Of a stretch of 64,000 nucleotides of DNA, positions 9,009 through 27,686 are shown piece by piece (the stretch's first letter is position 1; every line of letters starts with the position of its first letter). Source of the stretch: an uncultured Thermoleophilia bacterium (GTDB lineage Bacteria > Actinomycetota > Thermoleophilia > Gaiellales > Gaiellaceae). Location of the stretch: NCBI GenBank assembly GCA_963784945.1, contig CAWATN010000013.1, forward strand, positions 91,742 to 155,741. Reading direction: 5' to 3'. The notes under the pieces were generated by a model. It was not told the DNA's origin. It ran no database searches and saw nothing but the letters and a program-made list of their open reading frames with translations. Position numbers and translations under genes: made by a program.

Positions 9009-10079
9009 CTATGCCAAGATTCTCGAAGCTGGCGGCGCGGGCTGACGCGAAGGCGCGAGCGCTACGCCGAGAGTGACTCCCGCGATTCCGAGCACGCCGA
9101 CCGTCTGCCAGGGGGGGCCGTTGCCAGTCCCGTTGCCGATAACCATGAGCACGGGCAAGAACCACGCCAGCGACAGCCGCGGCCGCATGACGGCAACCGG
9201 GCCGAGCAGCAACGCGAACGAGTGCATCCACACGATCGGTGAAGCGACGATCATCGCCGTGACGGCCAGTGAGAATGACCTTCGATCGTCACCCCGCCGG
9301 CCCATGACCACGCTGCCGGCGAGAACCCCCAACGCGAGGACGATCCCCACCAGGCGGGCAAGATCGACGCTCGCCCCGAGGTCGAGGAGCATGACCTTGA
9401 CCGTGTAACTCTCCGACGATACAGCGCGATTGAGGGACCCCAGGTTGGACGGGTAGGCGGCAAGCCCCGAGAAGCCAAGTGTCCCCCAGAGGACAAAGGT
9501 CACGGTGGCAGAGACGACGGCGACGCCGACCGCTGCCGCCGTCCGGCGGGTCGCAGCGAGCCAGACGATGAGCGGCCAGCAGATGATCTTGGCTGCGAAT
9601 GCGAGACCGCCTGCCGCCGCCGCTCGCTTCCAGTGATCTCGCGCATGCCAGCAGACCGACGTGCCGAGTAGAAGCAGGATCGTGACATTGCCGGTCTGCA
9701 CCGCAGCCAGAACAGGGGTCCACAGAAAGCAGACGCTGTAGCAGCGCCAGTCACGCACACCGAGGAACCACAGGCATACAGGGACGCACCCGATAAGCAA
9801 GACGGTGAAAATGACGTTCGGCCCGGGCAGCGCCGTGAGCGGCACCAGCGCAAATGCGACAAGGGGTGGATACCCGTAAGCCGGATAGGGAGAGTGGCCA
9901 GCAGCAATTGCGCGGGCCGCCGGAAGAAGGGTCTGATTCAGATCGATGCCGAGAATGCCGTCCCGATACGCGGCGACGAGGGCAGGCACCAGCACGAAAG
10001 CCGGCAGCAGCATGAACAGAACGACGTTCAGCGGGCGACTAGGGGACGTGCTCGAACGCCAGGATGAGTGAACACGCAT
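9009..10079 (-). CDS. glycosyltransferase family 87 (DUF2029)-like polytopic membrane protein
   Basis: The 356-aa product has many TM segments, and the loop ...GHSPYPAYGYPPLVAFALVPL resembles GT87 mannosyltransferases. Confidence 0.55.
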   Translation of the reverse strand: MRVHSSWRSSTSPSRPLNVVLFMLLPAFVLVPALVAAYRDGILGIDLNQTLLPAARAIAAGHSPYPAYGYPPLVAFALVPLTALPGPNVIFTVLLIGCVPVCLWFLGVRDWRCYSVCFLWTPVLAAVQTGNVTILLLLGTSVCWHARDHWKRAAAAGGLAFAAKIICWPLIVWLAATRRTAAAVGVAVVSATVTFVLWGTLGFSGLAAYPSNLGSLNRAVSSESYTVKVMLLDLGASVDLARLVGIVLALGVLAGSVVMGRRGDDRRSFSLAVTAMIVASPIVWMHSFALLLGPVAVMRPRLSLAWFLPVLMVIGNGTGNGPPWQTVGVLGIAGVTLGVALAPSRQPAPPASRILA

Positions 10080-10861: not shown

Positions 10862-12358
10862 ATGCCGGACGTCGCACCAAACGGCGACTCCGGTGCTGGC
10901 AGGATGAAGCAGCGATGGATCCAGGGGGTTGTCGACAACAACCTCCTCGTCCTCGTGATCATGCTGCTTGCGACGTTCCTGCTCGTCGTCGGGCGCGCGC
11001 TCCTTGGCGGCGACAGCTGGCTCACTTTCATGGCTGGTCGGGAGATCGTCGAGCATGGCCTCCCACGGCACGAGACGCTGACGACGATCCCGCTCGGGAG
11101 AACGTGGACCGATCAGCAGTGGCTCGCCCAGCTGGTCTTCTACGGGCTCAACCGCGTCGGTGGGCTCGGACTCTCGATCGTCTTCCACGCGCTGATGGTC
11201 ACCACGGCGTTCGCCATCACCGTGGTCACGTCACGGATGCGCGGCGCGTCGTCGCGGATGACGCTCGTCGCCGCAGCCGTCTGCCTGCTTGTCGCGCCCT
11301 GGTCGTGGCAACTGCGGGCTCAGTCGATCGCCCTACCCCTCTTCGCTTTCACCCTCGCGCTGATGGCGACCGACGCCTGCTTGCGTGCGCGGCGTACCTA
11401 CCTCGTGTTTCCGACACTCATCGTCTGGGCGAACATGCACGGTTCGGTGGTGCTGGGGGCGATGCTCGTCTCGTTCGCCGCCGTGCTTTGCCTCCCCGAC
11501 CTCGTTCGCCGACGTCCACACATGACCCCTCTGTGGAGGCTGGCGCTGTTCCTGATTGCCCCCTGGGCCTGCATTCTCGTCTCGCCGTACGGCACCGACC
11601 TCGTCGACTATTACCGCATTCTCCTTGTCGACAGCCCCGTCTCGAAGTTGATCACGGAGTGGCAAGCACCCAAACCGCACGGGTACTTCCTCATCTTCTT
11701 CGTGGTCGCCGCCGTAACGGTGGCGATCGTGATCTGGCAGCGCCGGCGCCTGTCGCTCTACGACATCGGGGTGTTGGCGCTGACGCTCGCCGGGGCCGGG
11801 CGGAGCGTGCGCGCGGTCGTGTGGTTCTCACTCGCGATGGCCATGCTGCTGCCGCTCGCCCTCGACGGCATCGTGCGCCCGAGTGCACAGGCTCCCATCC
11901 ACCGACGACTCGCGCTCGGCCTCACGGGCGCCTTGGCCTGCATTCTCACCGCAACAGCAGTCTTCATGCTCACCCGAAGCGACACTTGGTACGAACACAG
12001 CTGGTCGGCGGGCGGAGCCCGCGCGACGGCGCGCGCCGCAAACACCTCCGGGATCGAGGAAGCAGTGTGGCCGAGCGACGCGTACGCAGACTGGCTGCTG
12101 TGGAAGGAGCCCACGCTTCGAGGGCGAATTGCCTGGGACGTCCGCTTCGAGCTCTTGACCGAGGCGGAGATCCGCTCCATCGTGAGGTTCAAGTCGTACA
12201 AGCCTGGGTGGCGAGCTCCTGTCCGCAGATATCCCATCCTCGTCCTCGACCCCCGCGAGAGCCCCGCGCAGGCGCGGGCTCTTCGACGCGAGCCAGGCAC
12301 AAGGGTCATTTTCGCCGACAGGGCGATGATCGTACTGGTTCGTAGCCCGTCCGGCTAA
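10862..12358 (+). CDS. large polytopic membrane protein of unknown function (possibly GT-C-like)
   Basis: The product is about 500 aa with at least 10 hydrophobic segments and an N-terminal loop GGDSWLTFMAGREIVEHGLPRHETLT...DQQWLAQ. The start could be the ATG at 10862 or at 10904. Confidence 0.55.
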   Translation: MPDVAPNGDSGAGRMKQRWIQGVVDNNLLVLVIMLLATFLLVVGRALLGGDSWLTFMAGREIVEHGLPRHETLTTIPLGRTWTDQQWLAQLVFYGLNRVGGLGLSIVFHALMVTTAFAITVVTSRMRGASSRMTLVAAAVCLLVAPWSWQLRAQSIALPLFAFTLALMATDACLRARRTYLVFPTLIVWANMHGSVVLGAMLVSFAAVLCLPDLVRRRPHMTPLWRLALFLIAPWACILVSPYGTDLVDYYRILLVDSPVSKLITEWQAPKPHGYFLIFFVVAAVTVAIVIWQRRRLSLYDIGVLALTLAGAGRSVRAVVWFSLAMAMLLPLALDGIVRPSAQAPIHRRLALGLTGALACILTATAVFMLTRSDTWYEHSWSAGGARATARAANTSGIEEAVWPSDAYADWLLWKEPTLRGRIAWDVRFELLTEAEIRSIVRFKSYKPGWRAPVRRYPILVLDPRESPAQARALRREPGTRVIFADRAMIVLVRSPSG

Positions 12359-12665: not shown

Positions 12666-12786
12666 CCATTGGCCAGTTGACCCTCTCAGCGTTCCAAACG
12701 ACACTCCAGTGTGCTGAAACATGGTCGTCGCGGCGAGTTATGGCGATCAGAACGGAAGCTACAACCGGGGGAGAAGGAGCGAGGGA

Positions 12787-12990
12787 ATGAGAGTGCTCGA
12801 CGCGATTTCCGCCCGGGTTCAAAACGCATGGTTCGCAACTCGAGACGAGGAATCCGGTCAGACGCTCACCGAGTACGCGCTGATCATCGCTCTTGTTGCG
12901 GTAGCGACTGTCGCAGCGGTCGGCTTCTTCGGCGGCAGGCTCGTCAACCTTCTGTGGCAGGAAGGAAGTTCGGTCGGTAACACCACCTGA
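12787..12990 (+). CDS. flp: Flp family type IVb pilin
   Basis: The ATG at 12787 follows GGAGAAGGAGCGAGGGA. The processing motif is ESG/QTLTEYALIIALVAVATVAAVG (G/XXXXEY), and the hydrophobic mature peptide is about 43 aa. Confidence 0.85.
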   Translation: MRVLDAISARVQNAWFATRDEESGQTLTEYALIIALVAVATVAAVGFFGGRLVNLLWQEGSSVGNTT

Positions 12991-13161: not shown

Positions 13162-13356
13162 ATGCAGGTTTTCACCAACGTTGTTGTCCGGGCCCAGAAC
13201 GCTTGGTTCGCAGCTCGTGACGAGGAGTCCGGCCAGTCGCTCGTCGAGTACGCGCTGATCGTCGCTCTTGTCGCGGTCGCTTCCATTGCAGCACTCGGCT
13301 TCCTCAGCGGCAAGATCCAGGCCATCTTCTCGAAGGCCGGCAGCTCGATCGCCTAA
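13162..13356 (+). CDS. flp: Flp family type IVb pilin (second copy)
   Basis: The SD is AAAGGGAGAG. The product MQVFTNVVVRAQNAWFAARDEESG/QSLVEYALIVALVAVASIAALG has the same leader architecture as the first copy. Confidence 0.9.
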   Translation: MQVFTNVVVRAQNAWFAARDEESGQSLVEYALIVALVAVASIAALGFLSGKIQAIFSKAGSSIA

Positions 13357-13675: not shown

Positions 13676-14392
13676 ATGGCGAAGAACCTGATGGAGAAAG
13701 TGACAACCTCACGAGGGGGCGCGATCGCCATCGGGGTTACCGTCGCGATCATTGCAGCGATCCTCCTGATCGTCTACCTGACGCGGTACAAGTCGAGCGT
13801 CGACTCGACCGCAGCAGCAGTACCCGTGCTCGTCGCGAAGAACCTGATCCCCAAGGGGACGCCGGGAACCGCCGTCGCTTCGAAGGGGCGCTATCAGAGC
13901 ACATCCGTACCATCGGACAAGGTCCAGCCCGGGGCAATCAGTGATCCCGCGGAGCTCAACGGACGTCTTGCCATTGCGGACATCTACCCGGGAGCACAGC
14001 TCACGCTGAACAACTTCACGGCCGAGGCCTCAGGTGCCCTGAACGCACAGATCGCGGGCAGGGAACGCGGAGTGACGCTGGCGATCGATGTGGTCAACGG
14101 CAGCCTTGCGAACGTTGCCACGGGTGACCACGTCGACCTCTATGTCAAGGTCGACAAGGGCGAACAGCCCACGATCCAGCTCTTCCGATCGAATGTTCTC
14201 GTCCTCTCGGCGCCTGGCGCTGCCGGCGGGAACGTCGTGCTCAGAGTGGGCACCAAGGACTCATCGAACATTCTCTTCGCCGCGACGCAGGCCACGTTGT
14301 ACTTCGTCATCCGCCCAGCGGCCGGAGCCAGCCCATCAGCTCCTTCGCTCGCGAATCTCTCGACCGTGATCGCAACCAGCAGGACTCGCTAA
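13676..14392 (+). CDS. cpaB: Flp pilus assembly protein CpaB/RcpC
   Basis: The SD is GGAAGGAG. The product has an N-terminal TM anchor, then a SAF-like segment VPVLVAKNLIPKGTPGTAV and the typical CpaB length. Confidence 0.8.
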   Translation: MAKNLMEKVTTSRGGAIAIGVTVAIIAAILLIVYLTRYKSSVDSTAAAVPVLVAKNLIPKGTPGTAVASKGRYQSTSVPSDKVQPGAISDPAELNGRLAIADIYPGAQLTLNNFTAEASGALNAQIAGRERGVTLAIDVVNGSLANVATGDHVDLYVKVDKGEQPTIQLFRSNVLVLSAPGAAGGNVVLRVGTKDSSNILFAATQATLYFVIRPAAGASPSAPSLANLSTVIATSRTR

Positions 14393-14396
14393 CTCC

Positions 14397-15602
14397 ATGG
14401 CCGAGACGCTTCGCACGCTGGTTGCGGTCGATAGCGGCCTCGATACCCATGAGCTCGCGAACATCGTCACGAGCGACGGCGTCATCAGCGTCTCGGGCGT
14501 CATCGACGGGATGGACGAAGCGTGGCGGACGTTGCAGGACAGCTCCTGCGACATCCTGGTCGTTGCCTGTCAGGGCTACTCGGAGCGCGCCCTCGCCCTG
14601 ATCGACGGGTCGGTCAAGCAGGATCCGGGCCGCCCGATCCTCGTGCTCGCGGAGGGCGTCCCGAACGGCTTCGTCCGACGCAGCTTCGAAGCCGGCGCAG
14701 ACGACATCCTGATGCTGCCCCAGACGCCCGACCAGGTGCGTTTCTCGATCCTCAAGCTGGTCGCGCGCAAGAGCCGGAAGAACGACGGTACGCCGGGGCA
14801 TCAGGGCCGTCTCATCTGCGTGCTCGGGCCGAAGGGAGGGGCGGGCAAGACCCTGACGAGCGCCAACCTGGGGATCGCGCTTGCGCAGGCAGGGCAACGC
14901 GTCGCGATCGTCGACCTGGACCTGCAGTTCGGGGACGTTGCCCTGTGTCTCGGGCTCGGGCCCGACCGAACGTTCTACGACCTTGCGCTCGCCGGCGGCA
15001 CTCTCGATGCCCAGAAGCTCGCCGCGTACCTGATGACGCATTCGTCAGGTCTCTGCGCGCTGCTTGCGCCGACGCGGCCGGATCAGGCGAGCTCGATCTC
15101 GGTCGAGTTGATCCGCGAGGTGTATGCATCCCTGCGGTCGACGTTCGATTACGTCATCGTCGATACGCCGCCCGGGTTCACCGCTGAGGTGATCGCAACT
15201 ATCGACGCAGCCAGCGATCTCGTCATCGTCGGCATGCTCGACGCCCTCTCGCTCAAGAATACGAAGCTCGGCCTCGAGACTCTCGAGCTAATGGGGTGCG
15301 ACCCGGATTCGATCAAGATGGTGCTCAACAGGGCTCAGAGCCAGGTCGGGATCAGTCAGAGCGATGTGGCAAACGTCCTCGGACGGCAGCCCGATGTCTT
15401 CATCCCGAGCGATCGGGAGATCCCCCGCGCGGTCAACGAAGGCATCCCGATCACCATCGCCAAGCCCGCGTCCGAGGCTGCCAACGCTTTTCGCCAGCTC
15501 GCATCGTTCTTTGTCGACGATGGAATGTCCGAGCCGCTAGCCATGACCACAGCACAGGATTCCGCCCTCGGGCGCCGACGTCTCTTCGGGAGGAAGATCT
15601 AA
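14397..15602 (+). CDS. tadZ: TadZ/CpaE: atypical receiver domain + MinD/ParA-type ATPase
   Basis: The deviant Walker A is GPKGGAGKT. The N-terminal receiver-like fold lacks the phospho-acceptor Asp (CDILVVACQG). Confidence 0.85.
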   Translation: MAETLRTLVAVDSGLDTHELANIVTSDGVISVSGVIDGMDEAWRTLQDSSCDILVVACQGYSERALALIDGSVKQDPGRPILVLAEGVPNGFVRRSFEAGADDILMLPQTPDQVRFSILKLVARKSRKNDGTPGHQGRLICVLGPKGGAGKTLTSANLGIALAQAGQRVAIVDLDLQFGDVALCLGLGPDRTFYDLALAGGTLDAQKLAAYLMTHSSGLCALLAPTRPDQASSISVELIREVYASLRSTFDYVIVDTPPGFTAEVIATIDAASDLVIVGMLDALSLKNTKLGLETLELMGCDPDSIKMVLNRAQSQVGISQSDVANVLGRQPDVFIPSDREIPRAVNEGIPITIAKPASEAANAFRQLASFFVDDGMSEPLAMTTAQDSALGRRRLFGRKI

Positions 15603-16954
15603 TGGAACTCCATGAACGCCTCACAACGACCAGGCCGAACGTTTCTCAGGGGACCCGCGAACCATTTGCGGAGCTGAAGACGCAGGTTCACCTTGCGGTA
15701 ATCGGAGATCTCGGGCCACAGCTCTTCAACGTCACCATGGACCCCGGTGCGTTGCGTGATCGCGTGCTCGTCGACATCCGGCGGCACCTCGCGGCCGAGA
15801 CGACCCTCTCGCGGGACGACCGCGAGCGCCTGAGCAAGGAAATCGCTGACGACATCCTCGGGTACGGCCCTCTCGAGCGGCTGCTCTCCGACGACTCCAT
15901 CTCGGAGATCATGGTCAACGGGCCAGGGGACATCTGGATCGAACGCCAGGGCCGCCTCTACGAGACGACGGTTCGGTTCAACGACGATTCCCACCTCCGC
16001 CGGATCATCAACAAGATGGTCGCTCAGGTCGGGCGTCGCGTGGATGAGTCATCGCCGATGGTCGATGCGAGGCTTCCTGACGGCAGCCGCGTGAATGTGA
16101 TCATCCCGCCGCTCTCGCTCTCGGGCCCGCTCGTCACCATCCGCAAGTTCTCGAAGAAGCGCCTCACGCTCGACGACATGGTCAATCTTGGGACGATCTC
16201 CGCGGAGGGCGTCGAGTTTCTGCGCCTGTGCGTTGCTGCAGAGCTGAACATCCTCATCTCCGGAGGCACCGGAACTGGCAAGACCACGCTGCTGAACGCG
16301 CTCTCGTCTGCAGTTCCCGAGAACGAGCGGATCGTCACGATCGAGGACGCCGCGGAGCTGCAGCTGCACCAGGAGCACGTTCTCCGTCTCGAGGCCCGGC
16401 CGAAGAACATCGAAGGCGAGGGCGAGATCTCGATCCGGGAACTCGTACGCAACGCGCTGCGCATGCGGCCCGATCGGATCATCGTCGGAGAGGTACGTGG
16501 AGCCGAGTCGCTCGACATGCTCCAGGCGATGAACACGGGCCACGACGGGTCGATGTCCACCGTGCACGCCAACTCGCCCCGCGATGCGCTCCACCGCATC
16601 GAGACGATGGTGCTGATGTCTGGGTACGACCTGCCCGTGCGCGCAATCCGGCAGCAGGTCTCCTCCGCACTCGACCTGATCGTCCACCTCGACCGGTTCG
16701 AGGACGGCTCACGCCGGATCTCGCACATCACCGAGGTGCAGCGGATGGAGTCGGACGTGATCACGCTCCAGGATCTCTTCGAGTTCAAGCTCGAGTCGGT
16801 AGCCGCAGACCGGACGATCACGGGAGGCGTCAAGCCGACCGGTCTCCGCCCCATGTTCCTCGCGAAATTCGAAAAGCACGGCGCCGAGCTTCCTGCCCAC
16901 ATGTTCGGCCCGGCTCCGACCACGCTCACCGACATCACGCGGAGGCAAAGGTGA
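15602..16954 (+). CDS. tadA: TadA/CpaF pilus assembly ATPase
   Basis: Walker A is ISGGTGTGKTT, followed by RPDRIIVGEVRG and NTGHDGSMSTVHAN. The ATG overlaps the tadZ stop (TAATG). Confidence 0.95.
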   Translation: MELHERLTTTRPNVSQGTREPFAELKTQVHLAVIGDLGPQLFNVTMDPGALRDRVLVDIRRHLAAETTLSRDDRERLSKEIADDILGYGPLERLLSDDSISEIMVNGPGDIWIERQGRLYETTVRFNDDSHLRRIINKMVAQVGRRVDESSPMVDARLPDGSRVNVIIPPLSLSGPLVTIRKFSKKRLTLDDMVNLGTISAEGVEFLRLCVAAELNILISGGTGTGKTTLLNALSSAVPENERIVTIEDAAELQLHQEHVLRLEARPKNIEGEGEISIRELVRNALRMRPDRIIVGEVRGAESLDMLQAMNTGHDGSMSTVHANSPRDALHRIETMVLMSGYDLPVRAIRQQVSSALDLIVHLDRFEDGSRRISHITEVQRMESDVITLQDLFEFKLESVAADRTITGGVKPTGLRPMFLAKFEKHGAELPAHMFGPAPTTLTDITRRQR

Positions 16955-18846
16955 ACCTGAAGCGGACACCGGCTATCGCGCTCGTCTCGGCTGCCCTCGT
17001 TGCTGCCGTTGCCACAAACGTGGCGACGGCAGCCGAGAGCGCAGCCGGCGTCGGTGTCACGGAGGCCACGGATTCGCACTTCCCGGACATGGCATTCGTT
17101 CTGTCGTTGCCCAAGAAGCAGCCACTCACGGCCGCTCAACTGGGCCTGACCGAGAACCGGAAGCCCGTTCAGAACCTGACCGTCGCAAAGCCTGGCGCGG
17201 ACAACGTCGGCGTCGTGCTCGTGATCGACGCGTCCAACAGCATGAAGGGCCGACCGATCGCCGGTGCGATGGCAGCGGCACGTGCCTTTGCGGCCCGACG
17301 TACTCCTGGGCAGCAACTCGCGCTCATCACGTTCAACGGCAAGACGACCGTCGTCCTGCCCCTGACGAACGGGGCGGCAGCGATTACCAAGGCGCTGGCG
17401 CAGACTCCCGATCTCGCCCCCGATACCCACATCTACGACGCTCTCGACAGTGCGCGCAAGTTGCTCGAGGAGTCGGGCGTCGCTGCAGGCTCAATTGTGC
17501 TCCTCTCCGACGGGAAGGACATCGGGAGCGATATCGACCAGACCACCGCGATCAGCGCGCTGAAGGACACGAAGGTACGGGTGTTCGCGGTCGGACTCCA
17601 CTCGGGCCAGTACGACCCGGCCGCGCTCAAGGCAGTCGCCGCGCAGACCTCGGGGAACTACAGCGAGGCATCGAGCGCGTCTGCACTGAAGCAGATCTAT
17701 GCCGGGCTCGGCTATACGCTCTCGAACGAGTACGTCGTCCGCTACCGGTCGCTCGCCGGCCCGGGGCAACAGACGAGGGTTGCAGTCAAGGTCGCTGGAA
17801 TTCCGGGAACGGCCCGAACGAGCTACGTGACTCCGTCGCTTCCGACGGCCTCTGTGGCGAACGGAGAGACGTGGTGGGATCGCATCATCCGGTCCCCGAT
17901 CACGCTCATCGTCGTCGTCTTCGCGATCGTTGCGATGCTCGGGTACGCGGTCTTCCGGCTCCTGTACCGGCCGGACCAGGCGCTGAAGCGGCGGATCGGC
18001 CAGTTCGTCTCCCTCCCGGAGGACGAGAGAGCGAAGCAGCGCCAGGCTGAGGTCGATCTCATGCTCGCGCCCGACGAGAAGTCTCCTACAGAAGGGCGCT
18101 TCGCCTACCTCAGGCGGCTCGAGGACGACATGGAGCTCGCCCACATCGAGACGCCGGTGCGCACCGTGCTGCTTCTCACGTGCATCGGTGGTCTTGCCCT
18201 TGGGATCGTCGTCGCCATCCTCGTTGGCTCGCCGATCGGCCTCCTTGCGGCGCTCGTCGCACCGTTCGTCACAAGGGCAGTTGTCAGCCGGCGCCTAAAC
18301 ACCACGCGCGGAGTCTTCTCGGATCAACTGCCGGACAATCTCGACGTTCTCGCGTCGGGGCTCAGAGCCGGGCACAGCTTCGTCGGCGCCCTCGCGGTCT
18401 GCGTCGACGATGCCGCCGAGCCGTCGAAGAGTGAATTCCAGCGCGTGCTCGCCGACGAGCAGCTAGGAGTGCCGGTCGACGAGGCGTTGCACGTCACTGC
18501 CAAGCGGATGGACAGCAGGGATGTCGTCCAGATTGCGCTCGTTGCAAGGCTTCAGCGCGAGGCCGGCACGAACGCGGCGGCCGTGCTCGACCAGGTCGCC
18601 GACAACGTCCGGGCTCGACTCGAGCTTCGTCGCCTGGTCGCAACGCTTACCGCCCAGGGCCGGATGGCACGCTGGATCGTGTCACTCCTGCCGGTGGGCC
18701 TCTTCTTGATCATCTACCTCCTGAACCGGCAGTACCTCGCCCCGCTCTGGAACGATCCGGTCGGCATCGCTGCGCTGATCTGTGCGGCGGTCATGGTCAT
18801 TGCCGGCTCCCTCGTCATCAAGCGAATCATCGAGATCGAGGTGTAA
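16951..18846 (+). CDS. tadB: fusion protein: signal peptide + von Willebrand A domain + TadB-type platform (T2SS-F) domain
   Basis: The GTG at 16951 overlaps the tadA stop (GTGA). The N-terminus is VNLKRTPAIALVSAALVAAVATNVATA. The VWA domain has a MIDAS-like motif (VLVIDASNSM ... VLLSDGKD). A TM helix ITLIVVVFAIVAMLGYAVF follows, then a T2SS-F domain running to the stop. There is no in-frame stop between the parts. Confidence 0.85.
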   Translation: MNLKRTPAIALVSAALVAAVATNVATAAESAAGVGVTEATDSHFPDMAFVLSLPKKQPLTAAQLGLTENRKPVQNLTVAKPGADNVGVVLVIDASNSMKGRPIAGAMAAARAFAARRTPGQQLALITFNGKTTVVLPLTNGAAAITKALAQTPDLAPDTHIYDALDSARKLLEESGVAAGSIVLLSDGKDIGSDIDQTTAISALKDTKVRVFAVGLHSGQYDPAALKAVAAQTSGNYSEASSASALKQIYAGLGYTLSNEYVVRYRSLAGPGQQTRVAVKVAGIPGTARTSYVTPSLPTASVANGETWWDRIIRSPITLIVVVFAIVAMLGYAVFRLLYRPDQALKRRIGQFVSLPEDERAKQRQAEVDLMLAPDEKSPTEGRFAYLRRLEDDMELAHIETPVRTVLLLTCIGGLALGIVVAILVGSPIGLLAALVAPFVTRAVVSRRLNTTRGVFSDQLPDNLDVLASGLRAGHSFVGALAVCVDDAAEPSKSEFQRVLADEQLGVPVDEALHVTAKRMDSRDVVQIALVARLQREAGTNAAAVLDQVADNVRARLELRRLVATLTAQGRMARWIVSLLPVGLFLIIYLLNRQYLAPLWNDPVGIAALICAAVMVIAGSLVIKRIIEIEV

Positions 18847-18849
18847 CCC

Positions 18850-19767
18850 ATGACGACTTTCATCCTCATCGTCGCACTGATTCTTCTCGCCGCCGCGGTC
18901 ACGATTCTCGTTCAGGCGATCACCGCTCCACAGCGCGAGGGCCAGGAAGTGGTCGAGCAGATCGGAGCCTACGGCTTCCGCGGCTTCGTCTCGCGCGACG
19001 ACGGCGTGGCGCGCGAGCACACATCCCTCAGGGAGCTGCCGACCACGATCGGTGATTGGCTGAGCGCCCGCTTCGGGGCCCACAAGGAGGCGGATGTTCG
19101 TCGGCGCCTCGTGGCGGCAGGATGGTATTCGACGACGCCTGCCGCGTTGCTCGGGTACCGATTCATCAGCGCGACCGTCTTCACGTTCGGGTTCCTTCTC
19201 CTCGGCGCGGCTGCGGGTATGAGCACCGCGTTGTACGTCGTCGGCCTCATCGTCTTTGCGCTGTTCGGCTGGTACCTGCCGTCGATGGTCCTGAACCGCA
19301 AGACGAAGGAACGCCACCACAAGATCGACCGTGAGCTTCCCGAGCTGATCGATCTCCTTGTCGTCACCGTGGAAGCGGGGATTGGCTTCAACGGCTCCCT
19401 TCGGCTCGCCGCCCAGGAGCTCGGCGGCCCGCTCGCCCAGGAACTGCGGCTCACCCTGCAGGAACAGAGCATGGGCCTCTCGACGACGGAGGCGCTCGAC
19501 AACCTCTCGTACCGGGTCGACGCCCCGGGCATCAAGTCCTTCGTGCGGGCGATCAGTCAGGGCGAGACCCTCGGGGTCTCGATCAGCCAGATCCTTCGCA
19601 ACCTCGCGGAGGAGATGCGCAAGAAGCGGAAGGCGACTGCCGAGGAGCTGGCTCAGAAGGCGCCGATCAAGATGCTCTTCCCGCTGATCTTCCTGATCTT
19701 CCCCGCCATGTTCGTGGTCTTGCTCCTACCGGCGCTGCTCGCGATCTCGAAGTCGCTGGGGGATTAG
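18850..19767 (+). CDS. tadC: TadC platform protein (T2SS-F domain)
   Basis: The 305-aa product has an N-terminal TM helix, a central ELPELIDLLVVTVEAGIGF region and a C-terminal TM pair. It starts 3 nt after the tadB stop. Confidence 0.85.
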   Translation: MTTFILIVALILLAAAVTILVQAITAPQREGQEVVEQIGAYGFRGFVSRDDGVAREHTSLRELPTTIGDWLSARFGAHKEADVRRRLVAAGWYSTTPAALLGYRFISATVFTFGFLLLGAAAGMSTALYVVGLIVFALFGWYLPSMVLNRKTKERHHKIDRELPELIDLLVVTVEAGIGFNGSLRLAAQELGGPLAQELRLTLQEQSMGLSTTEALDNLSYRVDAPGIKSFVRAISQGETLGVSISQILRNLAEEMRKKRKATAEELAQKAPIKMLFPLIFLIFPAMFVVLLLPALLAISKSLGD

Positions 19768-19771
19768 CCGT

Positions 19772-20539
19772 ATGAGCAGACGGGCAGGGACGCTGACACT
19801 TCGTCGGGAGGATGGCCGCATCGTCTGCGACTCGGTCATCGTCGCCGACGGAACGTTCCGACGCCTGCGCGGCCTCCTCGGCCGCAAGGCACTCCGTGCC
19901 GATGAGGGGATCGTCCTCCGCCCCGCCTGGTCGATCCATACCGCGTTCATGCGGTTCTCGATCGACGTCGTGTTCGTAGACGCAGAGCAGGTCGTGATGC
20001 GTATTGCGCCGAGCCTCCGACCGTTCAAGACCGCGTCCTGCCGTGGCGCCCGAGAGGTCGTCGAGCTTGCAGCCGGCGAGTGCGCGAGGCGTGGCCTCGC
20101 TCCCGGTGACCGTGTCGCGTGGGCGTCCCGCGACGTCGTCAATGCGCTCGCGATCAAGGAGAACGCTCCGCTCCAGATCGACCGACTCGGAACGGTGCTC
20201 GTTGCGAGCGCCGATCAGCGGTTCGTCAAGCTCGCCCGCTTCCTCCTGGAGGGGCGTGGGATCAACATTGAGGCACAGTCTGCGCCCGTCTCACTTTCGG
20301 GCTCGCTTGCGGATGCGAACGTCGACGCGGTTCTCCTCGACGCCGGCGTGAGTCTCGGCGACGGTCTCCGCGCTCTGAACAACGCGCGCGCACAGCGGCC
20401 CGACGTGCCCTTCGTCCTCGTCGCGGAGGCCCCCGGTGACCGTGCTCCCGAAAGCGTGCGCGTCTTCGACAAGTGGCAGGAGACGGACGCGGCAATGAGC
20501 GCGCTCGAGCAGGCGATCACGGGAGTTCCCGTCGGATAG
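19772..20539 (+). CDS. DUF192 (UPF0127/COG1430) domain fused to a receiver-like domain
   Basis: The N-terminal half (VIVADGTFRRLRGLLGRKALRADEGIVLRPAWSIHTAFMRFSIDVVFVD...VVELAAG) matches the DUF192 pattern. The C-terminal half (TVLVASADQ...VDAVLLDAGVSLGDGL...PFVLVAEA...FDKW) is CheY-like. Confidence 0.65.
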   Translation: MSRRAGTLTLRREDGRIVCDSVIVADGTFRRLRGLLGRKALRADEGIVLRPAWSIHTAFMRFSIDVVFVDAEQVVMRIAPSLRPFKTASCRGAREVVELAAGECARRGLAPGDRVAWASRDVVNALAIKENAPLQIDRLGTVLVASADQRFVKLARFLLEGRGINIEAQSAPVSLSGSLADANVDAVLLDAGVSLGDGLRALNNARAQRPDVPFVLVAEAPGDRAPESVRVFDKWQETDAAMSALEQAITGVPVG

Positions 20540-20725: not shown

Positions 20726-22192
20726 ATGGCGTCCCTCGCCGGCACCACATCGAGGACCGAGGCGATTGTCGCGCTCTCGCGTCTCGATGCCACGAAGCGG
20801 TCGGCCTCGGCCGGGACGACGCGGCTCGAGCATCTTCATGCGTTCCTCGCCGACGGCGCTCCCTCCCACGTGCTGCCGCTCCTCGTTGCGGCGCGCGTAC
20901 GAGCCACCCGGATCGCGCTCGCCGGTGGTGAAAACGAGGCGAGTGACGCGATGGCGGCGCACGTCTACGCCGCTGACGTCGTCGCGAACCTCGCAGCCGA
21001 GGGCGATCTCGCTCCAACCGACACCCAGATCACTGCAGGAGCGCTCGCCGAGGCATGCTCGATACCGCTCACTGCGGCCAGCTTCGACCTGTTCCTCCGC
21101 ACCATCTCGAGCCCCGTCCTGCTCGAACTGCCGCCCGTCGTGGCCGCCGAGATCCAGCTTCGACTGCTGCTCCATCTCGACGTCGCCTCCGAGGTCTCGC
21201 TCTGGTGCCGAACGAGCGACGGTCGCATCGACTGCATGATCTCGCTCGGCGCCGACCCGACGGACGGCCAGGTTCGCAGGCAGGCCAAGGCTGCGATCAC
21301 GGGGCGCGCCGGCGTCTCGCTCGTCGGCCTTTCGACGCTCCGCACGGGGGCAGTGCACCGTTTCGGAACGCCTGTTGGCGCGGTCGTTGCACGCCTCCAT
21401 GGCGATCGCCGACGCGACATCAGTGCCTACCTGGACGAGACGGCGCTTGCGCTCTCGATCGTGCTCGAGCGCGAACTGCTGCTCGAGCACAACACGAGGC
21501 GCGAAAGCGCCCTGACGAGCAACTCAGAGAACCGGCTGACGCGACTCGGCTTCGACCTGCACGACGGGCCGGTTCAGGATGTGCTCGCTCTCGGCGCCGA
21601 AACCCGCCAGCTGCGCGACAAGGTCTACCCCTTCGTGCTCGACAGCCACCGCGAGCTCGTGAGCGGCCGCTTCGACGATCTCCTTGCACGACTGGTCGAG
21701 CTCGACCGGCAACTCCGCGAGATGGCCCACTCACTCGAGTCGCGAAGCATCGTCTCGCGACCCCTCGCCGAGATCCTGCACCGCGAGGTCGAAGCCTTCG
21801 CGCGCCGAACTGAGATCGAGACCTCGGTCGAGGTGCGTGGCGATCCGGAGTCGCTCAGCTCCTCACAACGCGTTGCCCTGTTCAGAGCCATCCAGGAGTC
21901 GCTCTCGAATGTCCGAGAGCACAGTGGCGCCACGGAGGTCGAGGTGCGGCTCCAGGTGCGGCGCAGCACGGTCGACGTTCGCGTTACCGACAACGGCCAA
22001 GGCTTCGAGGTGAACCGCTCGCTTGCTCTCGCAGCCGAGCGAGGGCGCCTCGGCATCGTCGGCATCGGTGAACGGATGAGGATGCTCGGAGGCTCGTTCG
22101 AGGTCGACAGCCGTCCCGGCGGTCCCACCACTTTGCGGTTCTCCCTGCCACGGTGGGAGCAGTTCCACCCCGTCTCCCGAGAGAGGAGCTGA
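20726..22192 (+). CDS. soluble sensor histidine kinase (GAF-like N-terminal region + HisKA_3 + HATPase_c)
   Basis: The H-box LGFDLHDGPVQDV is of the NarX/DesK (HisKA_3) type. The ATPase motifs are IQESLSNVREH, VTDNGQGF and LGIVGIGERMRMLGG. No TM segment is seen. An in-frame TAG lies immediately upstream of the ATG. Confidence 0.8.
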   Translation: MASLAGTTSRTEAIVALSRLDATKRSASAGTTRLEHLHAFLADGAPSHVLPLLVAARVRATRIALAGGENEASDAMAAHVYAADVVANLAAEGDLAPTDTQITAGALAEACSIPLTAASFDLFLRTISSPVLLELPPVVAAEIQLRLLLHLDVASEVSLWCRTSDGRIDCMISLGADPTDGQVRRQAKAAITGRAGVSLVGLSTLRTGAVHRFGTPVGAVVARLHGDRRRDISAYLDETALALSIVLERELLLEHNTRRESALTSNSENRLTRLGFDLHDGPVQDVLALGAETRQLRDKVYPFVLDSHRELVSGRFDDLLARLVELDRQLREMAHSLESRSIVSRPLAEILHREVEAFARRTEIETSVEVRGDPESLSSSQRVALFRAIQESLSNVREHSGATEVEVRLQVRRSTVDVRVTDNGQGFEVNRSLALAAERGRLGIVGIGERMRMLGGSFEVDSRPGGPTTLRFSLPRWEQFHPVSRERS

Positions 22193-22297
22193 GACACGAT
22201 GGAATCGACGAAACTGACCTTCGGAGCGATCGCGTTTCCCGCGAAATGCAGGTATTCTTTGCCTGAAACGGTGGGCGAGGAGCCCGGGGAGAAGTCG

Positions 22298-22726
22298 ATG
22301 CACGAGCCAGTCAGACATGCGAAGCGACGGCGCGAGGAAGGCCAGGCGATGATCGAGATGGCCCTGATTCTGCCCGTCCTGTTGCTCCTGATCGGCGGAA
22401 TCGTGAAGTTCGGCATCGTCTACAACAATCACATCATCTTGACCGATTCCGTTCGCGTCGGCTCACGCCAACTCGCGCTCGGTCGCGGTCTCCCCGACGC
22501 GTGCGTGCCCGCGGTCAAACGGCTCAAGGACAGCGCTGAGAACCTCGACTCGAGCAAGCTCGTCGTCGCGGCGCCGGTCTTCAGCGGCACGTCGTCCTGC
22601 GCCACGATGTTCGAGGGTGACGCGTCGACGATCAGCGCCACCTATCCGTGCGAGCTGACGATCTTCGGGATCGACTTCTTCCCGAGCTGCAAGCTCAAGG
22701 CATCCGCGACAGAGGCTGTCGAGTGA
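22298..22726 (+). CDS. tadE: TadE-like minor pilin
   Basis: The ATG at 22298 follows GGGGAGAAG. The TadE N-terminal motif is RREEGQAMIEMALILPVLLLLIGGIVKFG. Confidence 0.75.
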   Translation: MHEPVRHAKRRREEGQAMIEMALILPVLLLLIGGIVKFGIVYNNHIILTDSVRVGSRQLALGRGLPDACVPAVKRLKDSAENLDSSKLVVAAPVFSGTSSCATMFEGDASTISATYPCELTIFGIDFFPSCKLKASATEAVE

Positions 22727-22743
22727 GACTCGCGCCCTCAGAC

Positions 22744-24768
22744 ATGCGGCGTCGTAGCGTTCGTCACGAGGACGGGCAGGCGTTGCTCCTGATGGTCTTC
22801 GCACTCGTGGTGCTGCTCGGTCTGGCCGCGCTCGTCTTCGACTTCGGCCGGGCGTACCTTGCACAGCGTCAACTGCAGCAGGCCGTCGATGCCGCCGCAC
22901 TCGTTGCCGGGCAGACCATGCCGGACACCACGGCCGCCTATGCCGCTGCCGTGAACTACAGCGCCACCGGCCTGAACAAGCATCTCCTCAGCATGAACGC
23001 GGGCGCCCCGACGATCAAGTTCAAGTGCGTGCAGAGCCTCGCGCAGAACAATGTGCCCTGCCTCAAGGATCCGACGCCTGCCGGCGGTGGCAGTCCCAGC
23101 ACCCCCTGCAGTGTCGACGAGCCCATCACGAAGAAGTGCAATGCCGTCCAGGTGACACAGTCGGCGACGGTGCCAACCACATTCGGGCGGCTCTTCGTGC
23201 CGAGCCTCAAAGTGACGGCCCGCTCCACCGTCGGCATGCGCGGGGGAGCCCCCCACCCCCTCAACATCATGATCGTGCTCGACAGAACCGGATCGATGGG
23301 AGACCCTGGGCTTTCGATGACAACGACGGGGTGCGGCGACGCCGTCACGGATCCAAGCGGCAACACCGTGATTGCGGCCAACCAGTCCCTGAAGATCGAC
23401 TGCGCCAAGGCCGGTATCCGAGAACTCCTCAGTGGTCTTCTACCGTGCCAACCGAATCTCCAGGTGTGCGGCGCGGCGGCCCCACTCGATCAGGTCGGCA
23501 TGATGGTCTTCCCTGCGCTCAACGCGCGGGACGCGACAACTCACGACACCACCGGCAACCCCGCACATTCCAACGTCAACCTCGACTCGAGCGCCAGCTG
23601 CTCGGGTGCGCTCACGACGAAACCGCCGTGGTACACGCCGAACCGCGCGTTTCCCAACTGGTTCCTGCAGACGAGCGACGTCGGTTATGGATCGCCCGCA
23701 GTAGCGGCCGTGCCAGCGGTAGACGAGGTGGACCGGCTGAACGTTCAGGGCAACCCCAGCAGCGGGAACAATTCCTACTTCACCGTGACGGTGAACGGGC
23801 AAACGACAGGCAACCTCACCTGGCCAACGAACGCCGCTGCTGTTCAGGCCGCGATCGTGGCTCTGCCCGGAGTTGGGCCGACAGACGTCACCGTGGTCGG
23901 AAACAACAACGGACCAGGCGACCCATGGACGGTCACGTTCGCTAATGCCCTCGGCGGTCAGAACGTTGCCTTCGGCGTCACCGACAACCTGCTTCCCAAC
24001 AATGTTTCGATCACCAATTCGGAGGTGCTGGCCGGAGCGGCCGGCTCGCCCGCGCAGCCGGCGGTCGTCCCGGACTACTCATTCGCCCCGCTCTCGAACG
24101 ACTTCAGGACAACCCCCGATCCAGGGCTGAACGCCAATTCGCGCCTGATCCAAGCGATCACCTGGTCCTCCTGCCCCGGCGGCACGTCGACCGTCGGAAC
24201 CCGACAGATCGCCTCGGAGAGCGCAACGGGGTATCCCGGAAACCGGTACTACGGCGTAACTGCCGGCGGCAATACGTATTACACCGGAGCCCTCCTCGCA
24301 GCTCAGGACGCGCTCGCAGCCGAAGCGGCTGCCCATCCACAGCGGGAGGCGCAACCGGTGATCATCTTTCTCACGGACGGCCAGGCCAACACGGGGGCGC
24401 CAAATCCGTGCGCCACTGCCATGAGCGCCGCGCAGGCTGCCGCCCAGGCCGGGACCTGGGTGTATTCGATCGCATACAACGTCTCGGTCAGTTCGTCGAA
24501 CCCCGACACGTATTGCCAGTTCCCGGGAGGTACCCGGGAGGTCGCCCCGGGGTACCCGGGAGGACTGCCCGCGTATCACACTCTCGCGCAGATCGCGAGG
24601 AACAACGACACCCCAACGGTGTCCGATCCGACGAAGTTCTTCTGCGTGGGCACGCCTTCGAACCCCGCGGAGCCGTGCCAGGACGGCAGCACTCTCACGC
24701 AGGTCTTCAGGAGCATCGGCACCCAGCTCACCGCTTCACGGCTCTATTCCGATGACACCTTCAACTAG
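22744..24768 (+). CDS. tadG: TadG-like pseudopilin with an interrupted VWA domain
   Basis: The Tad N-terminal motif is EDGQALLLMVFALVVLLGLAALVFDFGRAYLAQRQLQQAVDAAALVA. The VWA elements are IMIVLDRTGSM and VIIFLTDGQAN. The alternative GTG at 22723 overlaps the tadE stop. Confidence 0.75.
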   Translation: MRRRSVRHEDGQALLLMVFALVVLLGLAALVFDFGRAYLAQRQLQQAVDAAALVAGQTMPDTTAAYAAAVNYSATGLNKHLLSMNAGAPTIKFKCVQSLAQNNVPCLKDPTPAGGGSPSTPCSVDEPITKKCNAVQVTQSATVPTTFGRLFVPSLKVTARSTVGMRGGAPHPLNIMIVLDRTGSMGDPGLSMTTTGCGDAVTDPSGNTVIAANQSLKIDCAKAGIRELLSGLLPCQPNLQVCGAAAPLDQVGMMVFPALNARDATTHDTTGNPAHSNVNLDSSASCSGALTTKPPWYTPNRAFPNWFLQTSDVGYGSPAVAAVPAVDEVDRLNVQGNPSSGNNSYFTVTVNGQTTGNLTWPTNAAAVQAAIVALPGVGPTDVTVVGNNNGPGDPWTVTFANALGGQNVAFGVTDNLLPNNVSITNSEVLAGAAGSPAQPAVVPDYSFAPLSNDFRTTPDPGLNANSRLIQAITWSSCPGGTSTVGTRQIASESATGYPGNRYYGVTAGGNTYYTGALLAAQDALAAEAAAHPQREAQPVIIFLTDGQANTGAPNPCATAMSAAQAAAQAGTWVYSIAYNVSVSSSNPDTYCQFPGGTREVAPGYPGGLPAYHTLAQIARNNDTPTVSDPTKFFCVGTPSNPAEPCQDGSTLTQVFRSIGTQLTASRLYSDDTFN

Positions 24769-25498
24769 GACCGGCGTGTCGCGCCGGTCCCGAACGCTGT
24801 GCGCGACTGCAGTCGGTGCGGTGTGCCTCGCCCTCGTCTCGACGGCGTCCGCGTCCGCCCCGGTGACATACGTCACGCCGACGGCGATCGCAGCGAAGAT
24901 CCGTGGTCTCGTTCCGCAGATCCCCACCGACAACACGAGCCCGCCCTCGACCATCACGGCAACGTCCTGCAAAGGTCTTCCCCCCGCCCGTCAGCAGAAG
25001 TTCACGACGTTCCGCTGCTCGGCGACGTGGAGCCATGGACATGCGACGATCTGGGCTCGGGCACTCCCGGGCGGGACGTATTGCGCCAGCAGCACGGGGC
25101 TGGCCTCCTGCCCACCGGGACCTGCGGTCACGGGCGATCCCCGGATTTGCACGAATGCGCCCGCTCCGCCGACCGCCGACCCGAACCGCTGCGCGCTCGC
25201 TGCAACCGAGATCGCGATCGTCCGAGCGATGCCGATCAACTTCAACGATCCCGGGTGGACGATCAGGAACGTCTCTTGCACAGGGTCGAACTTGAGCCGG
25301 AAGTGCACCTTCTCGAGCCACACCGCGTACGGCATCTACTACACGAGTGCGATCGGCTTCGCGCAAGTCGACGGCGCCTGGACGGCGACGATCGTCACGA
25401 CCGGTGGCGGCGGGACGTCCACGTGCTTGGTCCTCCCCGGCCCACCGGCGGGGCGCTCTCGCTGGACGACAGGCCCAGCACCGACCTGCACGAAGTAG
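24752..25498 (+). CDS. secreted cysteine-rich hypothetical protein
   Basis: The signal-peptide-like N-terminus is RRSRTLCATAVGAVCLALVSTASASA, and the mature part has about a dozen Cys. The gene overlaps the tadG 3' end by 17 nt on the same strand. Confidence 0.5.
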   Translation: MTPSTRTGVSRRSRTLCATAVGAVCLALVSTASASAPVTYVTPTAIAAKIRGLVPQIPTDNTSPPSTITATSCKGLPPARQQKFTTFRCSATWSHGHATIWARALPGGTYCASSTGLASCPPGPAVTGDPRICTNAPAPPTADPNRCALAATEIAIVRAMPINFNDPGWTIRNVSCTGSNLSRKCTFSSHTAYGIYYTSAIGFAQVDGAWTATIVTTGGGGTSTCLVLPGPPAGRSRWTTGPAPTCTK

Positions 25499-25590: not shown

Positions 25591-26574
25591 TCAGCCCTCG
25601 CAGGCTGCGAGCAACCCCTGGATGTAGCCGATCGCATGAAGGCGCCCGAGCGTCGGGTACCCCGGCACGAGCGTCGTGTCCCCAGCGAGCGCCGGCGAGT
25701 GATCCGTACGCAAGGGGGCGTCGACGCCGGCGGCGAGATAGGCGCGAATACAGGCCGCCATGTCGGTGGGGCCTTCGTCGACGAACGTCTCCACGAACCG
25801 CTCCGGCGTTCCTCTGACGTCGCGGAAATGAACGAACTGAATGCGACCTGCTTCGCCGAACCGCGCGATCGCGGCCGGGAGATCAGGGGTCATCAACGCC
25901 ACGTTCCCCTGACACAGGGTCATCCCGTTCGCAGGGCTCGGCTGCAGGTCGAAGACGCGGTCGTAGGCGTCGAGGGAGCGGATGATCCGACCGATCCCAC
26001 GTACGGGCGAGAGCGGAGGATCATCGGGATGCAACGCCAGGCTGACGCCCGCGTCCTCGGCAACCGGGATTGCGCGCTCGAGGAACCAGGCAAGCGCTTC
26101 CCAGAGCCGCTCCTCCTCGACGGGAGCGCCCGGAGCCGGAGGCCCGTCCTTCCAGACGGCTGCGTCGAAACCCGTCACCTCGGCACCACCACGCCCGGGC
26201 CTTGCGACCGAGGTTCGCGACCACGGGACGACGGCCATCCAGTTGTAACACCACACCGTGATTCCGAGCCTGCCCATCGTCCGCAACAGCTCGAGCACCG
26301 TCTCGAGCTCCTCCTCGCGGCCGGGGAGCCCGAGCCGGAGCCTGTCCATCGGCGGGTTGTCCTCGATCACGGTCAGGCGGAGCCCTGCGTCCTCGATCTG
26401 CTGTCGGTACAGCGCGAGCGGGCCATACTCCCACGGCTGCTCGGGCGCATGCGCACGCCAGTCCACGAACCCGCGCGGTAGGACTCCCGTAGCCTCCTCG
26501 ACCCCGAGCTGACGCAGCTGTGTCCAGGTCGGAGCCGCACGGGGCTCGAGCAGGATCTCGGCGAGGCGCAGCAC
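25591..26574 (-). CDS. uxuA: mannonate dehydratase
   Basis: The C-terminal block reads FVHFRDVRGTPERFVETFVDEGPTDMAACIRAYLAAGVDAPLRTDHSP...PGYPTLGRLHAIGYIQGL. That block and the overall length match UxuA. Confidence 0.75.
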   Translation of the reverse strand: MLRLAEILLEPRAAPTWTQLRQLGVEEATGVLPRGFVDWRAHAPEQPWEYGPLALYRQQIEDAGLRLTVIEDNPPMDRLRLGLPGREEELETVLELLRTMGRLGITVWCYNWMAVVPWSRTSVARPGRGGAEVTGFDAAVWKDGPPAPGAPVEEERLWEALAWFLERAIPVAEDAGVSLALHPDDPPLSPVRGIGRIIRSLDAYDRVFDLQPSPANGMTLCQGNVALMTPDLPAAIARFGEAGRIQFVHFRDVRGTPERFVETFVDEGPTDMAACIRAYLAAGVDAPLRTDHSPALAGDTTLVPGYPTLGRLHAIGYIQGLLAACEG

Positions 26575-27259: not shown

Positions 27260-27272
27260 TCAGGGGCTTGAC

Positions 27273-27686
27273 TCATTCCGCGTCGGCGTCGACCGGGTCC
27301 TCGTCCTCCGCGAGGCGCCGCTGCAATACGCTGCGGGAGAGGACTCCGACGAGGCGGCCGCGCTCGACGACCGGGACGCGCTCGGCGTCGTGCTCCTCGA
27401 GAAAGCGGAACGCATCGTCGAGCGGAGTGTCCGCGTCGATCGTGTAATACGGCTCCTCGGCGAGGGCGCCGATCGTCGTCAATCTGGCGTCGAGGCCGGC
27501 GGCCACGACCTTGGCGACGAGCGTCTTCCTCGTCAACACACCCGTGAGGGCGCCGGCGGCGTCGACCACATAGACCGCTCGCACCTCGGAAGGAGTCAGC
27601 ACCTGACCCGCCTCCTGAGCGGAGGCCGTGCCGGGCAGCGAGCGTGGATCGACGATCATCGCGTCGCGGACGAGGTCGGTCGTCAT
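27273..27686 (-). CDS. CBS domain pair protein
   Basis: The 137-aa product has two CBS repeats (...VRAVYVVDAAGALTGVLTRKTLV ... ERVPVVERGRLVGVLSRSVL). Its ATG overlaps the gdh stop (ATGA). Confidence 0.8.
   Translation of the reverse strand: MTTDLVRDAMIVDPRSLPGTASAQEAGQVLTPSEVRAVYVVDAAGALTGVLTRKTLVAKVVAAGLDARLTTIGALAEEPYYTIDADTPLDDAFRFLEEHDAERVPVVERGRLVGVLSRSVLQRRLAEDEDPVDADAE

Follow-up and report, generated by a model that had tools for sequence, protein, structure and literature searches.

A TadB platform protein with a von Willebrand A domain at its N-terminus is the usual form in Tad pilus loci of a Gaiellales/Thermoleophilia lineage

This analysis deals with a gene of the Tad/Flp pilus locus of an uncultured Thermoleophilia bacterium of the Gaiellaceae, located on a stretch of 64,000 nucleotides of contig CAWATN010000013.1 (the whole stretch is called the window, and positions refer to it unless another locus is named). 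The gene encodes a TadB platform protein with an additional domain of the von Willebrand factor A type (VWA), and the fusion is called VWA-TadB here. VWA-TadB is the genuine single TadB gene of a secretin-less Tad/Flp machine of the actinobacterial type. It comprises a canonical TadB module and, on its outward-facing N-terminal end, an ectodomain of about 280 residues that is predicted to be Sec-exported. The ectodomain is a beta-sandwich around a VWA domain with an intact metal ion-dependent adhesion site (MIDAS), and a flexible tether of about 20 residues connects it to the membrane. The fusion is genuine and widespread, and it bears on a mechanistic question that has not been settled. It is known only from genome sequences, mostly of uncultured organisms, from which we infer its functional role.

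The VWA-TadB gene (16951-18846, forward strand) is an uninterrupted frame of 631 codons followed by a stop codon, and Pfam searches with the open reading frames (ORFs) of the window placed it within a complete Tad/Flp locus. The GTG start codon (16951-16953) shares bases with the TGA stop codon of tadA directly upstream (16952-16954; GTGA), and tadC starts 4 nt past the end of the gene. The G+C content of the DNA is about 65%. Upstream of the GTG, the frame is open as far as position 16228, but a start at that position was rejected, because this part belongs to tadA and the homologues have N-termini that line up with the GTG at 16951 in alignments.

Two Pfam domains were found in the protein. 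PF00092 (VWA) matched residues 88-250 with an E value of 4e-16 and 60.2 bits, compared to a gathering cutoff of 23.8. PF00482 (T2SSF) matched residues 464-589 in a single copy, covering profile positions 2-124 of 125, with an E value of 4.4e-11 and 43.3 bits, compared to a cutoff of 25.2. The MIDAS motif DxSxS...T...D is complete and consists of D93, S95, S97, T159, and D187. An earlier note on this DNA, made from the sequence alone, had described a single frame starting at a GTG that overlaps the tadA stop and encoding, in this order, a signal-peptide-like segment, a VWA domain with MIDAS-type residues, a transmembrane (TM) helix, and a full T2SSF domain, and it had proposed a Pfam check. The frame was borne out by the sequence, all four elements turned out to be present, and both domains scored above their gathering cutoffs. 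The motifs DASNS and SDGKD, which it had named as part of the metal site, are located at residues 93-97 and 186-190, and the site is conserved in the family, as detailed below. The features of the gene and its product are as follows.

16951-18846, forward strand: VWA-TadB gene (ORF reading; start supported by the N-termini of the homologues)
16941-16945, forward strand: GGAGG, a ribosome-binding site that precedes the GTG by 5 nt, read directly from the sequence
16951-17034, forward strand: Sec-type signal-peptide-like segment, residues 1-28, in which a basic n-region (KR) is followed by about 19 residues of hydrophobic core and by small residues ATA-AE (Kyte-Doolittle peak of 1.98 at residues 6-28)
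17050-17190, forward strand: N-terminal strands of the beta-sandwich flanking the VWA domain, residues 34-80 (AlphaFold2 strands 35-38, 46-52, 64-68, and 74-79; predicted local distance difference test score, pLDDT, about 90)
17206-17724, forward strand: VWA domain, residues 86-258, of alternating beta/alpha structure (Pfam and AlphaFold2; pLDDT >90)
17227-17241 (D93-x-S95-x-S97), 17425-17427 (T159), and 17509-17511 (D187), forward strand: MIDAS codons, read from the sequence
17725-17835, forward strand: C-terminal strands of the beta-sandwich, residues 259-295, with the motif LSNEY..RYRSL (AlphaFold2 strands 260-266, 274-281, and 287-293)
17836-17895, forward strand: tether between ectodomain and membrane, residues 296-315 (pLDDT about 56-76, <50 at residues 300-305; mean pairwise identity 0.25)
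17896-17967, forward strand: TM1, predicted to run from outside to inside and corresponding to the first helix of canonical TadB/TadC, residues 316-339 (Kyte-Doolittle peak of 2.77; AlphaFold2 helix 316-338)
17968-18156, forward strand: basic linker, predicted to be cytoplasmic, residues 340-402 (mean of 12.2 K/R in the family; three short helices at 341-350, 357-372, and 381-396)
18157-18294, forward strand: TM2 and TM3, forming a hairpin around a tight Ser-Pro turn, residues 403-448 (at least 41 hydrophobic residues; helices 403-425 and 428-472)
18340-18717, forward strand: T2SSF platform domain, residues 464-589, a cytoplasmic helical bundle that runs into TM4 (PF00482)
18667-18834, forward strand: TM4, a short outer loop, and TM5, residues 573-628, followed by the C-terminus KRIIEIEV, predicted to be cytoplasmic (hydropathy, charge, and AlphaFold2)

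The topology was analyzed by hydropathy, charge distribution, and structure prediction. Kyte-Doolittle profiles of the query and of the family average had hydrophobic segments at residues 6-28, 317-339, 406-446, 573-594, and 605-628. The n-region of the first segment has a family mean of +2.2 K/R and no D/E, the core comprises about 19 residues, and AxA-like ends are common. At TM1, the inner flank has 4.3 K/R in the family compared to 2.0 at the outer flank, and the turn within the segment 406-446 is free of charge. The AlphaFold2 model, for which 115 sequences were used as input, has a mean pLDDT of 83.7; the values are above 90 across the ectodomain and below 50 at residues 1-29, which are disordered in the model. 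The T2SSF bundle runs on into a long helix (542-591), and a final helix follows at residues 603-627. According to hydropathy and the AlphaFold2 helices, the bundle is flanked by TM segments in a polytopic layout, and three membrane spans separate it from the VWA domain. The topology of platform proteins has been settled by experiment, and the T2SSF bundle touches the ATPase (PMC10191384; PMC12019362), and therefore, the bundle must be cytoplasmic. Because three spans lie between it and the VWA domain, the latter is predicted to be extracytoplasmic and Sec-exported. A cytoplasmic position of the VWA domain, which the earlier note had named as fatal to its proposal, is thus not supported by hydropathy, charge, and the AlphaFold2 model.

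The second platform subunit of the operon, TadC, provides an internal comparison. TadC is 23% identical to the T2SSF part of VWA-TadB over 144 residues (E value 1e-9), and its residues 119-160 align with the hairpin region. The helix of TadC that is equivalent to TM1 is located at residues 3-25, and no ectodomain precedes it. Because TadC has the same layout and starts directly at the first helix, the fusion would merely lengthen the outward-facing N-terminus. Platform proteins described so far extend into the periplasm only with a small loop, and one platform motif each is present in TadB and TadC (PMC10191384). These descriptions and the start of TadC at TM1 are in agreement with the statement of the earlier note that canonical TadB proteins lack an extracytoplasmic domain.

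The sequence and fold matches of the ectodomain include extracellular VWA proteins with a MIDAS. Matches to the Protein Data Bank (PDB) at the sequence level were 4rck (an uncharacterized membrane-spanning Vibrio protein), the ArnB-like 8s05, ITIH4, anthrax toxin receptor 2, the fimbrial tip protein Mfa5, and BatB. A PDB search with the family profile yielded only VWA matches and no T2SSF structure at E values of 0.001 or below. Foldseek matched the Rossmann-like alpha/beta fold to 4fx5 (a Catenulispora VWA protein), ITIH1, ArnB (8s05 and 5a8j were among the best matches), CMG2, and vWF-A3, and the probability was 1.00 for CMG2, vWF-A3, and ITIH1. The combination of a VWA domain and a beta domain also occurs in the Foldseek matches 4fx5, 6fpy, and 8s05. 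Membership in the NCBIfam families BatA, TIGR03436, and PRK13685 was rejected, because the scores were 32.8 versus 380 bits, 45.4 versus 81.25 bits, and 37 versus 432 bits, respectively.

Next, the distribution of the fusion was analyzed, for which the earlier note had proposed a survey. A search of 5.8 billion proteins yielded at least 1100 matches, of which 120 were listed. Every full-length protein among these 120 contains both VWA and T2SSF, with identities of 45-94% and lengths of about 620-635 aa. A profile search was performed against 1.84 billion cluster representatives at 50% identity. All 150 representatives among the matches listed scored at least 448 bits and belong to the family, the alignments of the full-length ones cover both halves, and neither unfused relatives nor independent fusions outside of the family were found among them. 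The count of 6249 matches at E values of 1e-30 or below mixes fusions with ordinary TadB proteins and was not used as a family size. Lastly, one genome per GTDB species was scanned. A relative was detected in 209 genomes, and the best 80 loci were analyzed. They match from residue 10-45 (approximately) to residue 631, with the exception of L029, which starts at a contig edge and matches only from residue 82. All 80 genomes are metagenome-assembled genomes (MAGs), labelled Thermoleophilia, Gaiellales, Gaiellaceae, Gaiella sp., Actinomycetes, Actinobacteria, or Actinomycetota.

In all of the 80 loci, the VWA and TadB halves are encoded in one stop-free frame. A stop codon or frameshift splitting the frame, which the earlier note had considered a possible outcome, was thus absent throughout. 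The genes tadA and tadC were each present in 79 loci, and cpaB was found upstream in all 70 loci with sufficient flanking sequence and also in the loci L081, L082, and L084. The conserved block is cpaB-tadZ-tadA-[VWA-tadB]-tadC. VWA-TadB is the usual form in the Gaiellales/Thermoleophilia lineage and not an oddity of one genome.

The conservation along the protein was not uniform. The mean pairwise identity is highest for the T2SSF part (0.59), followed by the VWA domain (0.44), and it is 0.25-0.29 for tether, TM1, linker, and hairpin, with tether and TM1 being the least conserved regions (0.25-0.26). The MIDAS residues were retained in nearly all of the 225 full-length members, i.e., D93 in 222, S95 in 221, S97 in 213, T159 in 211, and D187 in 222 (94-99%), which shows that the metal site is under purifying selection. 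Further conserved residues are located in the C-terminal strands of the beta-sandwich. Y265, S267, and Y292 are invariant in an alignment of 20 sequences; in an alignment of 115 sequences, S267 and Y292 are invariant, and Y265 is conserved in at least 90%.

Variants of the architecture also occur. The protein encoded in locus L081 (7880-10579 of DATKBU010000113.1, an Egibacteraceae MAG) has a length of 899 aa and contains two tandem VWA domains in front of T2SSF, with the same operon layout (cpaB-tadZ-tadA-X-tadC). Longer family members of 700-750 aa are P0240, P0255, and P0265. The 641-aa protein P0222 (L082, 8001-9926, on a 5.1-Mb long-read MAG contig) aligns with the family over its full length, and its precomputed Pfam annotation contains T2SSF only.

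The earlier note had further proposed that the VWA domain might replace missing envelope components such as RcpC or TadD-type partners, or might engage the VWA-bearing TadG pseudopilin. Replacement of RcpC was rejected, because a CpaB/RcpC homologue (PF16976) is present at 13676-14392 as well as in the related loci specified above. TadD acts together with a secretin. The neighboring ORFs tested at the window locus did not include a gene for a secretin, nor was one detected in L081, L082, and L084, and therefore, there is nothing TadD-like to be replaced. The TadG-like proteins of several related loci have no Pfam VWA match (L072, 704 aa; L081, 322 aa; L082, 756 aa; L084, 514 aa), and thus, engagement of a VWA-bearing TadG cannot be a general rationale for the fusion. 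A tblastn search with TadG from the window detected homologues in 4 of the 80 loci, which is probably due to divergence and was not used as evidence for absence; Pfam spot checks were used instead. In the window itself, the TadG-like protein has MIDAS-like motifs DRTGS ... TDG with an insert of about 370 residues in between, and Pfam recognizes only the C-terminal part of the VWA domain.

VWA-TadB was compared with known systems. TadB/CpaG, together with TadC/CpaH (PF00482), shares with it the single T2SSF motif, the polytopic layout, and the N-terminal peripheral helix, as well as the gene order, with tadA directly upstream and tadC downstream, in a locus that also contains Flp, CpaB, TadZ, and TadE/TadG-like genes. 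In contrast, a signal-like segment and the ectodomain of about 280 residues precede the first helix in VWA-TadB, so that the protein is doubled to 631 aa. TadG of Aggregatibacter and CpaL of Caulobacter, which belong to Tad machines, also have a VWA domain that is located on the outer face of the cytoplasmic membrane, and the roles proposed for them are anchoring, priming, tip formation, and surface sensing. However, they are anchored by a pilin-like Tad/TadE segment (PF13400/PF07811) and are able to enter the pilus tip, whereas the VWA domain is covalently part of a platform subunit here. A Pfam search of VWA-TadB yielded no match to PF13400/PF07811, while the separate gene at 22648-24768 has one. 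Because it does not contain a pilin-like segment, VWA-TadB would be unable to leave the membrane. MIDAS-type VWA domains at type IV filament machines are also described in reports on PilY1 of type IVa pili (PMC11525922) and the modular pilin PilB of Streptococcus sanguinis (PMC8179133). These are tip-located or filament-borne proteins of type IVa pili and not platform proteins, and they have no relationship in sequence to VWA-TadB beyond the VWA fold. The best sequence and fold matches of the ectodomain, i.e., BatA/BatB, the acidobacterial VWFA family TIGR03436, 4rck, and 4fx5, sometimes have a beta domain after a MIDAS VWA domain, but they are not fused to T2SSF and have no link to pilus loci.

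How could the ectodomain act? The Tad platform has been modelled as a trimer of TadB-TadC heterodimers, in which peripheral N-terminal helices flank lateral gates for pilin entry (PMC12019362, PMC13170226), and a complex of minor pilins and CpaL is located on top of the platform before extension (PMC13170226, PMC12019362). In such an arrangement, three VWA modules would be positioned just above the platform, around the site of pilus priming and growth. Conservation of the MIDAS suggests that an acidic residue of a partner is bound via the metal, and this side chain might belong to another Tad component outside of the cytoplasm. Candidate partners are the TadE/TadG-type priming complex, the base of the Flp filament, and the CpaB ring. 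The VWA domain would thus be a docking or alignment module that is built into the platform, with a role comparable to that of the VWA modules of TadG/CpaL and PilY1. For this explanation as a whole, i.e., an outward-facing VWA domain on a genuine TadB with which the platform itself would dock or align a Tad component, we estimate a probability of roughly 45%.

Several points weigh against this explanation. The support for the topology consists of hydropathy, charge bias, and the secondary structure predicted by AlphaFold2. The fold matches ArnB and TFIIH p44 are cytoplasmic VWA proteins, and therefore, the fold alone is no proof of a location outside. The flexible tether does not fix the direction of the MIDAS face in the AlphaFold2 model. 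The platform has been proposed to rotate in 60-degree steps (PMC12019362), and if it does, three tethered domains of 30 kDa must either co-rotate or resist. In addition, the ectodomain may degenerate in some lineages, because P0222 (L082) has no precomputed Pfam VWA match. A cytoplasmic VWA domain is nevertheless very improbable. It would be a regulatory domain similar to ArnB, the hydrophobic N-terminal stretch would have no function in export, and the direction of TM1 would be from inside to outside. ArnB, a cytoplasmic regulator of Archaea, has two entries among the best Foldseek matches (8s05, 5a8j), and it regulates the archaellum, which is a type IV filament (PMC4858521). However, this orientation would leave the family-wide n-h-c signal without a purpose and would place the K/R-rich linker (340-402) outside, against the positive-inside rule. 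Together with the hairpin 403-448, it would also move the T2SSF bundle outside and away from TadA. Next to no probability was assigned to an artefact, i.e., the merging of a separate VWA gene and tadB by a sequencing or assembly error. The 80 single-frame loci are independent of one another, hundreds of independent metagenome proteins of 610-645 aa have the same architecture, and a frameshift or assembly artefact was therefore rejected.

Two further explanations accept an external VWA domain and assign another function to it. As a sensor or regulator, it would bind an environmental or surface ligand or sense load, and the signal would be relayed via TM1 and the N-terminal helices to the interface of platform and ATPase, where it would switch or gate extension and retraction. 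Similar roles in surface sensing have been proposed for the VWA domains of PilY1 and CpaL. Signalling genes are often found beside tadC, namely DUF192 genes, in part with a receiver (REC) domain, in 55 of the 80 loci and histidine kinase genes in 27. GGDEF/EAL genes are present in L035 and L010, a response regulator gene in L081, L082, and L084, and a histidine kinase gene in L081. Surface sensing by CpaL is the subject of PMC12607857, and PMC11525922 deals with PilY1 at the type IV pilus machine. However, tether and TM1 are the least conserved regions of the protein, which fits poorly with a precise allosteric relay, and we regard a sensor as unlikely. Alternatively, VWA domain and beta-sandwich might bind a cell-wall polymer and thereby fix the inner-membrane machine against pull or torque in an envelope without a secretin complex. 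The secretin-less loci mentioned above are consistent with such an anchor, as are genes for GT87 envelope glycosyltransferases beside 23 of the 80 loci (three in L082), and the two-VWA or longer variants (700-900 aa) would extend further from the membrane. However, CpaB/RcpC, the usual alignment component, has been kept, LysM or peptidoglycan-binding domains were not detected in VWA-TadB by Pfam, and the usual ligands of MIDAS sites are protein carboxylates. It would also be mechanically awkward to fix a subunit that has to rotate according to current models (PMC12019362). A wall anchor is thus an unlikely explanation.

A more far-reaching proposal, which we regard as unlikely, is that VWA-TadB might be the first example of a type IV filament platform with a direct grip on a partner outside of the membrane, be it the priming complex, the base of the filament, or a ligand of the wall or surface. 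It would then determine whether the single TadA motor runs, and in which direction, as a built-in clutch or stator on the outside that does the job of the free VWA proteins TadG, CpaL, and PilY1. If this were true, VWA-TadB would lend itself naturally to tests of the rotating-platform model, because the three bulky tethered domains must co-rotate or block rotation.

Platform proteins are the least understood core part of type IV filament machines, and they are thought to have almost nothing outside of the membrane. A family that has an external MIDAS domain and comprises at least 150 clusters (50% identity) would not fit this view. It suggests that a direct extracytoplasmic interaction takes place where pilins are inserted, and it gives an indication of how secretin-less Tad machines may organize their outer side. 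Gaiellales/Thermoleophilia are abundant soil Actinomycetota. Full-text literature searches yielded neither a description of a VWA-TadB fusion nor one of Gaiellales Tad pili, and thus, this architecture has apparently not been described for pilus machines. The sequences themselves are not new, because the proteins are public under generic names. The source annotations include "tight adherence protein B", and the database labels "VWA domain-containing protein" or "TadB" each conceal the other half of the protein.

The other genes of the Tad/Flp locus in the window are the following.

12721-12990 and 13162-13356, forward strand: tandem pair of Flp-type pilin genes (PF04964 matches)
13676-14392, forward strand: CpaB/RcpC homologue (PF16976, 30.3 bits, cutoff 28.8; SAF sub-threshold with 19.3 versus 21 bits)
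14397-15602, forward strand: TadZ/CpaE-like ParA/MinD ATPase (AAA_31, CbiA, and ParA matches)
15296-16954, forward strand: TadA/CpaF secretion ATPase, T2SSE (PF00437, E value 8e-73)
18850-19767, forward strand: TadC, second platform subunit, without an ectodomain (PF00482, E value 1e-17)
19772-20539, forward strand: DUF192 gene with a weak, sub-threshold receiver domain (PF00072, 21.6 bits)
20726-22192, forward strand: histidine kinase (HATPase_c match only)
22199-22726, forward strand: TadE-like gene (PF07811/PF13400 matches in the TadE/TadG pair)
22648-24768, forward strand: TadG-like gene with a VWA-like C-terminal part (PF07811/PF13400 matches in the TadE/TadG pair; partial PF00092 match; DRTGS...TDG motifs)

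For three of these genes, the start as listed needs comment. The first Flp ORF (89 aa as listed) has its Flp motif at residues 43-78, and therefore, its start is probably downstream of 12721. The start of tadA is uncertain and is probably near 15602. The TadG-like gene probably starts further downstream than 22648, because the listed start overlaps the TadE-like gene.

The flanking ORFs at 10915-12345, 24752-25498, 25636-26481, and 26775-27692 (all on the forward strand) had no Pfam match at E values of 0.001 or below, and homologues of the ORF at 10915-12345 were detected in only 3 of the 80 loci. The histidine kinase-like protein (20726-22192), which is encoded near the tad operon in the 27 loci mentioned above, has no recognized HisKA or sensor domain. 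The homologues of the DUF192 gene (COG1430; 19772-20539) are located near the fusion, sometimes upstream on the opposite strand, which suggests that the gene encodes an uncharacterized Tad-associated regulator. The GT87 genes, detected by tblastn in the related loci, are located at 9009-10079 on the reverse strand in the window and, in three copies, at 12680-17350 in L082, and a link to the envelope or to the glycosylation of pilins is possible. Lastly, in two related genomes, the tad operon is followed a few kb downstream by genes for GGDEF-EAL and GGDEF-GAF proteins (L035, 14837-16534, forward strand, and L010, 14157-16256, reverse strand, respectively), which hints at a control by cyclic di-GMP.

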